This document shows, in pieces, positions 1,816 through 6,678 of a stretch of DNA of 17,422 bases (position 1 is the first letter of the stretch; each line of letters begins with the position of its first letter). Under the pieces are notes generated by a model, which saw only the letters and a list, made by a program, of their open reading frames with translations, ran no database searches and was not told the DNA's origin. The translations under genes were made by a program, and so were the position numbers. The DNA is from a virus (Duplodnaviria > Heunggongvirae > Uroviricota > Caudoviricetes), in the IMG/VR virus record IMGVR_UViG_2667527582_000002, one strand, 5' to 3'.

Positions 1816-1918
1816 TTTATTATTTGTACCTCTTGAGATTTCCTTGTTGGTTTTTCTCTCTGATATTTTTTTTCGGACCATTCTGCCCAAGGGCTAACTT
1901 CTTCAAAAGGTAATAATG

Positions 1919-2131
1919 ATGTCTAACAAAATGACTGGTTTAGTGAAATGGTTTAACCCTGAAAAAGGTTTTGGTTTCATCACGCCGAAAGATGGTAGCA
2001 AAGATGTGTTTGTCCATTTCTCAGCTATTCAGAGCAACGATTTCAAAACGTTAACTGAGAATCAGGAAGTCGAATTTGGTATTGAGAACGGACCTAAAGG
2101 CCCCGCGGCTGTTCATGTTGTGGCACTTTGA
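1919..2131 (+). CDS. cspI: CspA-family cold-shock protein (prophage-borne, CspI-like)
   Basis: 70 aa, [23 protein letters not shown]...VHFSAI with RNP1 (KGFGFI) and RNP2 (VFVHF) motifs. Position directly downstream of the R/Rz lysis genes matches the Qin-prophage arrangement. ATG 1916 is an alternative start. Confidence 0.85.
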
Positions 2132-2634: not shown

Positions 2635-2751
2635 TTTGATTCTAATGCATTGATAATAAATGATAATCATCTTTATCTGTTTGTGTGAAATTTAGACCGT
2701 CGTATGTTGATTATTGCGATGTTTCATCTTATCTTTTATACGTTTGCTCCA

Positions 2752-2757
2752 TATAAT
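2752..2757 (+). promoter_or_regulatory. candidate -10 hexamer (TATAAT) upstream of the gns-like gene
   Basis: Perfect TATAAT about 50 nt upstream of the gns-like start. No convincing -35. Confidence 0.25.
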
Positions 2758-2806
2758 TGACACTACTGTGTACCAGGAAAGTCATAACAGACTAAAAGAG
2801 GAAATG

Positions 2807-2980
2807 ATGAACATTGAAGAGTTAAAAACAAAAACAGAAGCAGATATTTCTGAATATATAACAAAAAAAATCATTGAGCTTAAGAAAAAGACCGGGAAAG
2901 AAGTTACCAGTATCCAGTTTACTGCACGGGAAAAAATGACTGGTCTTGAAAGCTATGATATCAAGATTGATTTAATCTAG
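2807..2980 (+). CDS. gnsB: GnsA/GnsB-family small protein (prophage GnsB-like)
   Basis: 57 aa, MNIEELKTKTEADISEYITKKIIELKKKTGKEV...FTAREKMTGLESYDIKIDLI, recognisably the Gns family. Strong Shine-Dalgarno (AGAGGA) 4-7 nt upstream. Confidence 0.75.
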   Translation: MNIEELKTKTEADISEYITKKIIELKKKTGKEVTSIQFTAREKMTGLESYDIKIDLI

Positions 2981-3040
2981 TCTGTTTAGTATTAGCATCA
3001 ATTTCTCATCAGATGCTATTCAACAATACAAATTACCCAT

Positions 3041-3066
3041 AAACCTCGTTTTTACGGGGTTTTGTT
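3041..3066 (+). terminator. probable rho-independent terminator after the gns-like gene
   Basis: Stem CCUCG/CGGGG (one G-U pair), 6-nt loop, followed by TTTTGTTATATTT. Confidence 0.4.
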
Positions 3067-3273
3067 ATATTTAAACATTACCGAATAGGTATAAATCTCG
3101 ATTGTCGATGGTATTGGTTGTGTGACAATACCTAGTCTTTCCGGTATGCCTGAAGAGAATACAAACGACAGATTATGTAAGGGAAACGCGCTGAATCTTT
3201 AACTCTTTCATGCTGAGTGATTTGACGTTATATTTTTAGCCGTAAGTGAAGAGCAAACGCATGGAGCGACAAA

Positions 3274-3480
3274 ATGCATAAAGATCAATACACTGATGCC
3301 CCCTCCCAGGAGCAGGTTCGTGTAAAAACTATGCTTAATAGCACCATTTCGATGGGTTACCCGGATGTTGTAATTGCATGTATAGAACATCAAGTGTCTC
3401 TGGAAGCATTCAGGGCAATTGAGGCCGCGTTAGTAAAGCACGATAAGAATACGAAGGATTATTCCCTGGTGGTTGACTGA
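3274..3480 (+). CDS. hypothetical small protein (68 aa), orphan moron ORF just upstream of cos
   Basis: ATG preceded by GGAG 8 nt upstream. The translation ([18 protein letters not shown]...) is not low-complexity. No recognisable motif. Confidence 0.4.
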
Positions 3481-3834
3481 TCACCATAACTGCTAACCAT
3501 TCTGACCATTTCACAAGTGACAGAGTCAATATCGTATTCTGTCACTGTCAGGCTAATACAGCAATGCAATTCAACTACAGCAATGCCTCGTATTTAGGTG
3601 AATTTACAATATCGTCCAGTTCGGATGCCGGCTGCATTTCTGAAGATAAGGCATTTCGGTTCTCGTATTTTCCCCTCATGCTCGTCAGTCCTGCGCGTAG
3701 TAAGAAACAGGACACTCACACTAATTTGTGTGGGCATGCTGTGATGTCCTTCTGAATTATCCCCATGCCATTATGTAAAGCTCTGTTTCAGATGCTCGTC
3801 ACGGTTGTCAGGCTGTCGGGTCCTCCCAGTGGGG

Positions 3835-3870
3835 GTCCCTGCCACGGGGCGGGAGCGTCGCGGAAAAAGG
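3835..3870. other. putative cos site (cosN-like cohesive-end sequence), about 185 bp upstream of the small-terminase start
   Basis: CACGGGGCGGGAGCGTCGCGG at 3843-3863 resembles the lambda cos junction as I recall it (TACG-GGGCGGCGACCT-CGCGG). That gives a putative 12-nt cohesive end GGGCGGGAGCGT at 3847-3858 with 9/12 identity. The downstream ~170 bp is AT-rich, like cosB, and its distance to Nu1 matches lambda. Confidence 0.5.
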
Positions 3871-4042
3871 CTAGTTTTTGCATTTCCATGGCGGCGGCAG
3901 CATGTTTGGTAATTTATTGATAATTAAAAGTTATTTCTCTTTTCAGCTGTACAATATTTTTTTCTCCCTGTCATTAGACTAGTTTGCAATTAATTGAAAT
4001 ATATAAATAAACCTGATTTTCACCTGCCAGATGGAGTTGCTT

Positions 4043-4570
4043 ATGTCAAATGTGAGCGGGATCGGTGATGCTTATTACTGGAGTGTTTTTAAAATCGCCG
4101 AGGCCTTTGGGCTTCACTGGGACACAGTAAAAAAACGGCTCCTCGCGGCCAACACTCCTGTGGCTGCGACTGTCAGGGGGAACCCCGTTTACGCCCTGCA
4201 GCATGTCGGGCCTGCCCTGTTTAGTGTGAAGCATGAGGCAGCAGACTCTGTTCATGATCCATCCCGTATGGAGCCGAAAGAGAGAAAGGACTGGTACCAG
4301 TCGGAAAATGAAAGGATCAAGCTGGAAAAGGAGCAGCGAAAACTCATCCCCGTTGATGAAGTAGTCATCGTCTATTCGTCCATGAGAAAGGCTGTCGTCC
4401 AGGTTCTGGAGACAATTCCGGATGTTCTTGAACGCGATTGCGCCCTGACTCCTCAGGCCGTTGGCGTTGTACAGCAGGCCATTGATGACCTGCGATACAC
4501 TCTTCAGGAAAAATCCTACGAGGCTTGTGCTGCTGAATTAATTCCTGATGAGGAAGGAGAGAGTCTCTAG
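4043..4570 (+). CDS. terminase small subunit (lambda Nu1-like; NohA/NohD-type)
   Basis: Lies immediately upstream of the large terminase and downstream of the cos-like sequence. Start at ATG 4043 with GGAG 6 nt upstream. The N-terminal HTH-type assignment and the Nu1 family call rest on position and recalled similarity, with no conserved motif checked. Confidence 0.75.
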   Translation: MSNVSGIGDAYYWSVFKIAEAFGLHWDTVKKRLLAANTPVAATVRGNPVYALQHVGPALFSVKHEAADSVHDPSRMEPKERKDWYQSENERIKLEKEQRKLIPVDEVVIVYSSMRKAVVQVLETIPDVLERDCALTPQAVGVVQQAIDDLRYTLQEKSYEACAAELIPDEEGESL

Positions 4571-4578
4571 GAGGAATA

Positions 4579-6678
4579 ATGGGTTTTTCATCAGCCCGAA
4601 ATTTGGGAAGGGACATATCGGCAGGATTTTCCCCACCACGTCGCATGCCGATTTCGGAGGCTGTTAAAAAATTCATGCGTGTTCCCAAGGGGGCTGGTAA
4701 CTCGGTGCCATGGGATCCTGAACTGACACCCTACATCATTGAGCCCATGAACTGCCTGGCATCGCGTGAATACGATGCGGTGATTTTTGTTGGTCCTGCG
4801 CGAACAGGGAAGACCATTGGTCTGATCGATGGATGGATTGTCTATACCATCGTTTGCGATCCTTCGGACATGCTCGTTGTGCAGATGACCGAAGATAAGG
4901 CCCGCGAGCATTCAAAAAAGCGCCTCGACAGAACGTTCAGAAGCAGTGCGGCGGTAAAGAAAAGAATGAGTCCACGTCGTAATGACAATAATGTCCATGA
5001 TAAGACGTTCAGGGATGGCTCGTTCCTTAAAATTGGTTGGCCCTCGGTCAACATTATGTCGTCGTCGGATTACCGGTTTGTCGCCTTAACCGATTACGAC
5101 CGTTTTCCGGAGAATATCGACAGCGAGGGTGATGGTTTCTCCCTGGCCTCAAAACGTACCACCACATTTATGTCCGCCGGGATGACTCTGGTGGAGAGCT
5201 CGCCGGGACGTGACATCTGCGACAGCAAATGGCGACGTAAGTCGCCTCATGAAGCGCCACCGACGACTGGTATTCTTTCCCTTTACAATCGTGGTGACCG
5301 CCGCCGCTGGTACTGGCCATGTCCGCACTGCGGTGAATATTTTCAGCCAGCCATGGATGCCATGACCGGCTACCGTAATGAACCGGATCCCTTTAAAGCC
5401 AGTGAGGCGGCGTATCTACTTTGCCCGCACTGCAGCGGCATTATCACGGCGGAGAAAAAGCGTGAGCTCAATAGTGCAGGAGTCTGGTTGCGTGAAGGTC
5501 AGGTCATTGATTGTAACGGCAACGTTTCCGGTGAACCGCGCCGCTCCCGTATCGCCAGTTTCTGGATGGAAGGGCCAGCTGCTGCGTATCAGACCTGGGC
5601 GCAACTGGTTTACAAATTACTGACTGCAGAACAGGAGTATGAAGCGACAGGAAGTGAAGAAACACTCAGGGCGGTTATCAACACCGACTGGGGATTACCT
5701 TATCTTCCCCGCGCCAGCATGGAGCAACGAAAAAGTGAACTGCTTGAGCAGCGGGCAGAGCCAGTTCCTTCCCGCAGTGTGCCGGATGGCGTTAATTTTC
5801 TTGTGGCGACAGTGGATGTGCAGGCGGGACGTCATCGCCGTTTTGTGGTTCAGGTAACGGGCTATGGCAGCCGTGGCGAACGCTGGATTATTGATCGTTA
5901 CAACATCACGCAGTCATTGCGCGGTGACAGCGACGGGGAGAGCCAGCGAATTGATCCGGCCAGCTATCCGGAAGACTGGGATGTCCTGCTGACGGATGTT
6001 TTTCATAAAAGCTGGCCGCTGGCCTCCGATCCTTCTCAACAAATGCGACTGATGGCAATGGCGGTGGACTCCGGCGGTGAAGACGGGGTCACTGATAATG
6101 CCTATAAATTCTGGCGTCGTTGCCGTCGTGATGGCCTTGGTAAACGTATTTACCTGTTTAAGGGCGACAGCATCCGGCGCGCAAAACTGATCACCCGTAC
6201 ATTCCCTGATAACACCGGACGAACGGGCCGACGGGCGCAGGCCGCAGGTGATGTGCCGCTCTGGCTTCTTCAGACGGATGCACTGAAAGACCGGGTGAAT
6301 AACGCGTTATGGCGTGACTCGCCAGGTCCCGGCTATGTGCATTTCCCTGACTGGCTGGGGAGCTGGTTTTACGACGAACTGACGTATGAAGAGCGGAGCA
6401 GTGACGGGAAATGGAGTAAGCCGGGTCGCGGTGCCAACGAAGCTTTTGACCTGATGGTGTATGCCGAGGCTCTGGTCATTCTGCATGGATACGAAAAGAT
6501 CCGCTGGCCGGATGCACCGGAGTGGGCGAGCCGGGAAACCTGGCTGGAGTGTGTCCCGGACAGTACCGAACCGTCATCCTCACCGGAACCGGTATCCACG
6601 CCTGTTAAAAAACAAAAACGGAAGAAAACAGTAACTGACGATGTTAACCCCTGGCTGACTTCCGGAGGATGGTTATGA
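4579..6678 (+). CDS. terminase large subunit (lambda gpA-like)
   Basis: 699 aa, AGGAGG 6 nt upstream of the ATG. Walker A motif VGPARTGKT, and a CPHCG motif as in lambda gpA. Position is between Nu1-like and W/portal genes. Confidence 0.92.
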   Translation: MGFSSARNLGRDISAGFSPPRRMPISEAVKKFMRVPKGAGNSVPWDPELTPYIIEPMNCLASREYDAVIFVGPARTGKTIGLIDGWIVYTIVCDPSDMLVVQMTEDKAREHSKKRLDRTFRSSAAVKKRMSPRRNDNNVHDKTFRDGSFLKIGWPSVNIMSSSDYRFVALTDYDRFPENIDSEGDGFSLASKRTTTFMSAGMTLVESSPGRDICDSKWRRKSPHEAPPTTGILSLYNRGDRRRWYWPCPHCGEYFQPAMDAMTGYRNEPDPFKASEAAYLLCPHCSGIITAEKKRELNSAGVWLREGQVIDCNGNVSGEPRRSRIASFWMEGPAAAYQTWAQLVYKLLTAEQEYEATGSEETLRAVINTDWGLPYLPRASMEQRKSELLEQRAEPVPSRSVPDGVNFLVATVDVQAGRHRRFVVQVTGYGSRGERWIIDRYNITQSLRGDSDGESQRIDPASYPEDWDVLLTDVFHKSWPLASDPSQQMRLMAMAVDSGGEDGVTDNAYKFWRRCRRDGLGKRIYLFKGDSIRRAKLITRTFPDNTGRTGRRAQAAGDVPLWLLQTDALKDRVNNALWRDSPGPGYVHFPDWLGSWFYDELTYEERSSDGKWSKPGRGANEAFDLMVYAEALVILHGYEKIRWPDAPEWASRETWLECVPDSTEPSSSPEPVSTPVKKQKRKKTVTDDVNPWLTSGGWL

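Follow-up and report, generated by a model that had tools for sequence, protein, structure and literature searches.

A probable lambda-type cos site upstream of a DUF1441 small terminase gene in a cdtI/Tritos-type prophage

Lambda-like phages conserve cosQ and the CG pairs at the nicks of their cos sites, and changes at bp 7-12 are common among them in nature and leave cos cleavage without a measurable effect (Feiss et al., PMC4669245). In lambda, R3 occupies bp 50-65 in the layout R3-I1-R2-R1, and the same source cites a 47 +/- 2 bp rule, which is named in the title of Higgins and Becker (PMC9026076). Phages 21 and N15 relate to lambda through a shared cosQ/cosN cassette combined with an alternative cosB and TerS DNA-binding domain, the joint falling between I2 and cosB (PMC4669245); the modules of all three carry TerS proteins of the Nu1 family. 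The Salmonella prophage Gifsy-1 has been counted among the lambda-like phages, its differences lying at bp 8, 9, and 11 (Feiss et al. 2015, PMC4669245), and its TerS is annotated as a homologue of Nu1/phage 21, with a lambda-like cosB (PMC9026076). A further set of phages, comprising Gifsy-2, Fels-1, VT1-Sakai (Sp15), mEp460/Ayreon, and the Providencia phage PSTCR8lys, encodes a DUF1441 TerS that is 36-56% identical to the one considered here. These phages share the cosQ-cosN-I2 cassette described below, with terS starting ~195-206 nt downstream. The authors of the Ayreon paper explicitly left its cos unmapped. Our literature search found no paper on the sequencing of Tritos and nothing on cos for either Tritos or DUF1441.

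We analyzed a 17,422-nt stretch of viral DNA (hereafter, the window) and are confident that a lambda-like prophage of the cdtI/Tritos type, matching one in E. coli HS, has its cos here, from 3818 to about 4036. This reading draws on the alignment to the lambda junction, the ends of deposited phage records, the conserved 12-nt spacing between the nick flanks, and the gpA-family TerL and lambda-family portal encoded downstream. Upstream of cos lie an endolysin, an Rz-like spanin, a cold-shock protein gene, and small ORFs, so that the order of lysis genes, cos, terS, gpA-type terL, and lambda-family portal is that of the lambda late operon; lambda likewise has a gpA-family TerL and a portal of this family downstream. 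The terS gene begins at about +197 from the left end, compared with +191 in lambda. A promoter and terminator scan of 3600-4150 found none, consistent with late read-through transcription across cos. The features are collected in Table 1.

Table 1. Elements of the cos region and the adjoining terminase genes, in coordinates of the window; slashes mark predicted nicks.
Feature	Position	Strand	Basis
cosQ-like heptamer GGGTCCT (packaging termination signal)	3818..3824	+	Same as lambda/Gifsy-1; position conserved
cosN, CACG/GGGCGGGAGCGT/CGCGG	3843..3863	+	Lambda junction match; CACG-N12-CGCGG recurs in relatives
Predicted 12-nt 5' cohesive end GGGCGGGAGCGT	3847..3858	+	cdtI/Tritos record ends; identity with lambda and Gifsy-1
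I2-like conserved spacer CGCGGAAAAAGGCTAGTTTTTGCATTTCCATG	3859..3890	+	Kept in phages with different TerS
R3-equivalent candidate TerS box CATGGCGGCGGCAGCATGT, core CGGCAGCA at 3895-3902	3887..3905	+	Conserved; covaries with TerS
IHF consensus TATCAATAAATTA (WATCAANNNNTTR), I1-equivalent	3910..3922	-	Perfect match; binding presumed
Tentative inverted R-like element (CAGCTGTACA)	3944..3953	-	PSTCR8lys has inverted GGTGACAG, L102 inverted CGGCATG; weak
Conserved block CCCTGTCATTAGACTAGT with CCTGTCA, possibly R-like	3966..3983	+	Aligns with PSTCR8lys GCTGTCACCTC
Conserved block TCACCTGCCAGATGGAG, inverted R-like core and ribosome-binding site	4020..4036	+	Tentative; kept in L100, L101, L102, L111, and PSTCR8lys
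Small terminase TerS, 175 aa, DUF1441, R26W (codon 4118-4120)	4043..4570	+	PF07278; PHROG 141
Large terminase TerL, gpA family, 699 aa	4579..6678	+	GpA_ATPase 5e-81; GpA_nuclease 1.8e-86

The right end of the lambda genome (NC_001416) was joined to its left end and compared with the window base by base, without gaps. Positions 3843-3863 read CACGGGGCGGGAGCGTCGCGG, and the lambda junction matches as ACG/GGGCGG...C.T/CGCGG, with both nick flanks and cohesive-end positions 1-6, 10, and 12 identical. The 12-mer GGGCGGGAGCGT thus has 8 of 12 bases in common with GGGCGGCGACCT of lambda and departs from it at positions 7, 8, 9, and 11. An earlier note on this DNA had proposed a lambda-like but divergent 12-nt cohesive end at this place; alignment to lambda bears this out in the flanks, the left half of the 12-mer, and cosQ, with four differences from lambda rather than the three it had counted. 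In the whole 17.4-kb window, 3844-3863 is the one match to the degenerate pattern ACGGGGCGGNNNCNTCGCGG, against a chance expectation of 0.01 (shuffles, two mismatches tolerated). CG dinucleotides stand beside both nick positions, and the bottom strand reads CCGCG/, giving the same CC(A/G)CG two-fold symmetry as in lambda. By analogy with lambda, from which the 5' polarity of the end is also taken, the nicks would fall 12 bp apart at 3846/3847 on the top strand and 3858/3859 on the bottom strand. The Gifsy-1 cohesive end, GGGCGGCAGCGT, is closer still, agreeing with that of the window in 11 of 12 bases with position 7 the only mismatch, although its right flank is CGCAGG and not CGCGG. On these comparisons, 3843-3863 is very probably a real lambda-type cos site.

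The GGGTCCT heptamer has no other copy in the window on either strand. Its first base lies 29 nt before the top-strand nick position, compared with 30 nt in both lambda and Gifsy-1, so that the locus has the 7-bp cosQ about 30 bp upstream of the nick that characterizes lambda-like cos sites. GGGTCC or GGTACTC is found 28-32 nt before the nick in all 26 loci with a canonical cosN, the GGTACTC variant being that of Fels-1, Gifsy-2, and PSTCR8lys. The range in which the earlier note had placed the site, 3835-4042, leaves out this heptamer.

Megablast of 3500-4700 against phage records recovered cdtI (AB285204/NC_009514) and Tritos (OV696610, a linear record) at 98.7-99.1% identity. Both alignments open at record position 1, which corresponds to 3847 of the window; the two records begin GGGCGGGAGCGTCGCGG and finish ...CTGCCACG, the last base being equivalent to 3846, and so follow the convention of the lambda record. 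We regard these ends as strong circumstantial support for cos, short of proof, since the first base of these records could have been set on the model of lambda rather than by end mapping. Together with HannyBb (PP925841), whose cos region and terS fall in the same identity range, these phages have effectively the same cos as the window, joined to mosaic DNA left of cosQ; none of the three records annotates a cos feature. A prophage region of E. coli HS (NC_009800) matches 3810-4045 with 100% identity. Of 5,426 complete E. coli genomes, 886 have at least 80% of this segment and 2,122 have part of it. When viral contigs were scanned for the exact sequence of the left end, none of the 80 matches listed, of at least 120, lay at the first base of its locus, and where the locus was the whole contig the match was internal; prophages predicted in isolate genomes make up most of these contigs, so this result is uninformative on physical ends. 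The record of mEp460_4F5, which opens 5 nt ahead of the junction and is missing 3 nt from the 12-mer region, was set aside as uninformative, because an assembly artefact or a deletion is possible there. A full-text literature search with GGGCGGGAGCGT returned a single match, an unrelated paper on a eukaryotic promoter. The finding is correct but ordinary, as the cdtI and Tritos records already make the cohesive end effectively public.

Recurrence of the element among relatives adds to the case. We compared the regions upstream of DUF1441 terS genes in phage records, in metagenome contigs (homologues of 61-88% identity), and in 59 loci from species-representative genomes that extend from Enterobacterales to Halomonadaceae and Marinobacter. 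The pattern C[AG]CG-N12-CGCGG occurs in 26 of 70 non-identical upstream regions, where 0.27 would be expected, and every other flank spacing from 6 to 20 nt occurs in at most three loci. The left flank is CACG in all 26. Their 12-mers take 22 distinct forms, in which positions 2-3 are invariant (G), position 1 is nearly so, positions 4-7 are biased, and the right half is free. This variable right half agrees with the pattern that Feiss et al. described for lambda-like cosN, and the cohesive end of the window fits the known natural variation of such sites.

The cassette to which cosN belongs is bounded on both sides by mosaic joints. Across 79 prophage loci whose TerS is at least 99% identical, the DNA left of the heptamer falls into several unrelated families, near-identity extends from the heptamer rightwards, and the heptamer itself is conserved in all listed variants; the conserved cassette therefore starts exactly at cosQ. 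On the other side, sensitive blastn of 3800-3900 found a segment, about 3817 to 3880-3892, in common with phages whose TerS is 36-41% identical or only partly related (mEp460, mEp043/mEp213, CP-1639, VT1-Sakai, Stx2 phages, and a Klebsiella phage). The I2-like spacer, which is held in common by mEp460, mEp043, VT1-Sakai, CP-1639, Fels-1, and PSTCR8lys, is recognizable in the T-rich spacer of lambda. In mEp460_ev081 the sequence equals that of the window through 3881 and diverges completely beyond, which marks a mosaic joint at about 3881 between the spacer and cosB. A cosQ-cosN-I2 cassette is thus joined to one or another cosB/TerS module, the arrangement known from lambda versus 21 or N15, except that here the modules are built on DUF1441.

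GC content is 78% in 3810-3863 but falls between cosN and terS to 32% in 3864-4042 and 23% in 3906-4020, the window as a whole having 51%. An AT-rich, cosB-like stretch had been anticipated here, and its low GC content, conserved blocks, R3-like box, and IHF consensus agree with that description. In relatives with 80-86% TerS identity, cosN and the left flank differ and blocks between cosN and terS are kept, namely the I2-like spacer (3859-3890), CATGsyGGCGGCrGCATGT (3887-3905), TAAyyTATTGAT (3910-3921), GTCATTAGACyAGT (3969-3982), and TCrCCTGCC (4020-4028). The second of these is the candidate TerS-binding box, at +41..+59 from the left end with its core at +49..+56. The arrangement agrees with that of lambda in having an R3-like box near +50 ahead of an IHF consensus, although the cosB of the window has no sequence similarity to the lambda R sites. 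Depending on the limits chosen, the center of the box is ~43-47 bp from that of cosN, close to the 47 +/- 2 bp rule. The IHF consensus lies at +64..+76 and is one of three perfect matches in the window (0.68 expected); TAAyNNNTTGAT is kept after the first box in most Enterobacterales loci, whatever the sequence of the R3 box.

Further R-like elements, the possible equivalents of R2 and R1, are proposed tentatively. A repeat search of 3800-4060 gave short, weak, low-confidence repeats that do not define R elements, so comparative data are needed for their definition. Within the block at 3966-3983, GTCATTAGAC is invariant in four relatives of 80-100% TerS identity. In the block next to terS, the minus strand of 4023-4030 reads CTGGCAGG, a tentative inverted R-like core, and GGAG at 4033-4036 is the ribosome-binding site; the counterpart of this block in L102 is CCTGCCGAG, the inverse of the TCGGCAG core. 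A search of this region for R elements and an IHF site, as the earlier note had suggested, thus yields a perfect IHF consensus and an R3-like box, and weak candidates for the remaining R elements.

The terS product belongs to DUF1441 (PF07278, E=4.7e-43, 147.1 bits against a cut-off of 35.1) and to PHROG 141, 'terminase small subunit' (E=2.8e-63), whereas the lambda protein is of the Phage_Nu1 family. It has no Pfam match to Phage_Nu1 (PF07471) even at E<=10, its BLASTP comparison with lambda Nu1 gives E=3.6, hhalign of a 40-sequence profile gives a probability of 1.2%, and phmmer against the PDB detected no homology to Nu1. The best local alignments, though insignificant, pair TerS residues 16-49 with the Nu1 helix-turn-helix (6-39) in each comparison. 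In an AF2 model (pLDDT 84), residues 12-60 form a strand-helix-helix-wing-helix domain, which is followed by three long helices. Foldseek matched the N-terminal domain to MerR-type winged-HTH proteins (RacA, BldC, HiNmlR, and the 7lwr phage TerS DNA-binding domain) with probabilities of 0.9-1.0 and weak E-values; lambda Nu1 has weak MerR/HTH_17 Pfam matches of its own. The gene had been taken for a Nu1-like one with a divergent N-terminus, a likeness that survives in architecture and predicted fold and not in sequence homology. On the model, TerS plausibly works like Nu1. TerL matches PF05876 and PF20454, the gpA-family domains, and is 24% identical to lambda gpA (E=7e-22); by analogy, it would be the enzyme that nicks cosN.

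A link between this TerS and the candidate box comes from covariation. We tabulated TerS residues 14-52 against the DNA at +37..+80 for all loci. Every group has a box at +45..+60, and the sequence of this box varies together with TerS residues 25-28: loci with H(R/W)D[TS] have (G)CGGCAGCA, those with NRGT have GCTGTCAGCAGCAGG, those with DRK[AST] have GGGACACCACCA, those with DRAT have GATCGC(C)ATCAyCA, and those with DRGT have GGGCCTCCACCACCA. Halomonadaceae homologues with HRDT (41-43% identity) have TCGGCAGCAGCA at the same position and inverted GGTGCCGA copies downstream. Among the other DUF1441 phages the boxes at the R3 position are CATCATCATCATG, TCATCACCAC, and GCTGTCAGCAGCAGG, unlike that of the window, which implies other specificity groups. 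These pairings support reading the +45..+60 box as the R3-equivalent TerS site and suggest that DUF1441 TerS proteins fall into discrete packaging-specificity groups. A packaging specificity distinct from that of lambda, which the earlier note had derived from divergence in cosN, cosB, and the TerS N-terminus, is plausible because of cosB and the covariation of TerS residues 25-28 with the box; the cosN part of that argument falls away, as changes at bp 7-12 have no measurable effect on cleavage (PMC4669245).

How far the locus could be something other than a working lambda-type cos depends on several of these observations. A chance likeness to lambda cos in a GC-rich intergenic patch or small ORF, in a phage with headful (pac) packaging, might draw on the 51-aa ORF at 3765-3920 that spans the site and on the 'hypothetical protein' features annotated over this region in HannyBb and mEp460_ev081. 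We rejected this ORF as a gene because it has no family match and is crossed by the mosaic boundary at 3817. With a motif expectation of 0.01, a TerL of the family of lambda's cos-cutting terminase rather than of pac type, and a conserved cosN element at a fixed distance from terS in Enterobacterales, Vibrionaceae, and Halomonadaceae, the chance or pac reading is effectively refuted already, and we give it almost no credence. It is also improbable, if less extremely so, that the site is a cos cut at positions other than 3846/3847 and 3858/3859, with an overhang whose length, offset, or polarity is unlike that of lambda. Such a reading could appeal to the low identity between TerL and gpA and to relatives in which the 12-nt spacing is not kept: some have CACCGAG-N12-CGCGG, equivalently CACCG-N14-CGCGG, Gifsy-2 has CACG-N14-CGCGG, and the spacing is N11 in VT1-Sakai, N10 in CP-1639, and N9 in mEp460_4F5. 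A spacing of 12 nt is thus evidently not universal in the family, but N12 with both flanks is by far the commonest (26 loci, against at most three for any other), the CG flanks and the two-fold symmetry are as in lambda, and two phage records open and close at the lambda-equivalent positions.

The alternative that deserves most weight, though we still think it unlikely, is a genuine cos by descent that is unused in this copy, the prophage being defective or impaired in packaging through TerS R26W or through defects outside the window. R26W is the sole TerS difference from the isolated phages cdtI and Tritos, the two with which residue 26 was compared. Arginine occupies this position in the other 39 of 40 homologues in the family alignment and in 74 of 79 prophage copies, tryptophan in the remaining 5 of 79. 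The residue is at the N-terminus of the predicted recognition helix (26-35 in the AF2 model) and inside the segment 25-28 that covaries with the R3 box, so the substitution could weaken cosB binding in this copy. Against impairment stand an intact cos sequence with 99-100% identity to the isolated phages, full-length packaging and head ORFs throughout the window, and the presence of the W allele in several genomes. We retain the reading of a lambda-type cos, which would presumably be active in this particular prophage.

By analogy with lambda, packaging would proceed as follows. Through their N-terminal winged HTH, dimers of the DUF1441 TerS would bind at 3887-3905, the R3-equivalent box, and at further R-like elements of the AT-rich cosB, helped by an IHF-induced bend at 3910-3922. 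Bound TerS would place the gpA-type TerL on cosN, ~47 bp upstream, where it would nick the top strand after CCACG (3846/3847) and the bottom strand after CCGCG (3858/3859), leaving a 12-nt 5' overhang, GGGCGGGAGCGT. Packaging would then run rightwards and end at the next cos, where the final cut would require GGGTCCT (3818-3824), cosN, and the I2-like spacer.

More speculatively, the DUF1441 TerS proteins may recognize cos in the manner of lambda as a second, uncharacterized lineage alongside Nu1. The +45..+60 box would be selected by residues 25-28, where the recognition helix begins (HRD-T, NRGT, DRK-x, DRAT, DRGT, and others), at least five specificities would be served by one cosQ/cosN cassette, and R26W would be a natural variant that alters or inactivates specificity. 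We offer this proposal tentatively, as a possibility that we doubt somewhat more than we believe.

Nothing in the site itself goes beyond the lambda paradigm, and it fixes the correct start coordinate for genome annotation of the cdtI/Tritos-type phage group. The exact cos and its specificity group bear on which prophages, satellites, and cosmids can be packaged by which helper phages. This question touches on how virulence genes spread, since a cytolethal distending toxin gene cluster is described in phage cdtI (PMC5764929), whose cos is the same. The R26W allele is of modest added value, as is the covariation between DUF1441 TerS and the R3 box, which would provide a testable recognition code for a family that Pfam labels 'unknown function'.

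The small terminase (TerS) encoded in the window carries a tryptophan in place of arginine at residue 26, and this R26W substitution is the single difference that separates it from the TerS of phages cdtI and Tritos, and likewise from 74 of the 79 IMG/VR prophage copies. Arginine occupies the position in nearly all diverse homologues compared (39 of 40), and the residue lies at the beginning of the predicted recognition helix. In cosB, the AT-rich region between the putative nick site (cosN) and terS, the repeat architecture is plainer in three Halomonadaceae prophages (L143, L145, L146) than in the E. coli copy of the window; there cosB is shorter, with 126–149 nt from nick to terS, and a TCGGCAGCAGCA box is followed downstream by tandem inverted GGTGCCGA repeats.

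To the left of cos, the Tritos record has Csp, YnfN, GnsB, YbcV and YbcW genes annotated in the equivalent segment, near the Tritos right end. A 51-aa ORF at 3765-3920 is unlikely to be a genuine gene and was rejected as one, since no family match was found for it and a mosaic boundary cuts across it. The HannyBb and mEp460_ev081 phage records carry 'hypothetical protein' features over the same region.

Features of the window and cosN variants of related loci carrying terS homologues
Feature	Locus	Position or spacing	Remark
Gene for a cold-shock protein, with several small ORFs	window	1916-2131, 2714-3480	between lysis cassette and cos; small ORFs of unassigned function (PHROGs 2301, 657)
51-aa ORF	window	3765-3920	runs across cosQ and cosN
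TerS codon 26	window	4118-4120	R26W
CACG to CGCGG	L087 (Gifsy-2)	14 nt	atypical
CACG to CGCGG	L090 (VT1-Sakai)	11 nt	atypical
CACG to CGCGG	L098 (CP-1639)	10 nt	atypical
CACG to CGCGG	L093 (mEp460_4F5)	9 nt	atypical
CACCGAG-class cosN	L101, L103, L108, L111, L116, L126, L127	~195 nt upstream of terS	

The atypical CACG-to-CGCGG spacings of four loci could reflect defective cos sites, assembly errors or different overhang lengths. For a metagenome contig whose TerS is 88% identical to the window's (L100; JGI 3300025728 contig Ga0207655_1000690), neither cosQ nor cosN was found in the 330 bp upstream of terS, and likeness to the window there is limited to the final ~90 bp before the start codon. 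The packaging module of L107 (JGI 3300036772 contig Ga0376650_0001557) is interrupted, since its gpA-type large terminase is shortened to 133 aa and an integrase gene comes next; its cosN has the 12-mer GGTAATCAGCGC and a right flank of CCCGG. One contig that had been assigned to a Veillonella parvula MAG (L110; JAGZPX010000007.1) encodes a TerS 99% identical to the window's, has the identical cosN 12-mer, and is probably an E. coli prophage contig that was mis-binned.

A second class of cosN, CACCGAG-N12-CGCGG, replaces CCACG-N12-CGCGG in seven loci, and would leave an overhang of either 12 or 14 nt. Because this class is present even where TerS and cosB are 83–86% like those of the window, cosN and cosB have been reassorted.
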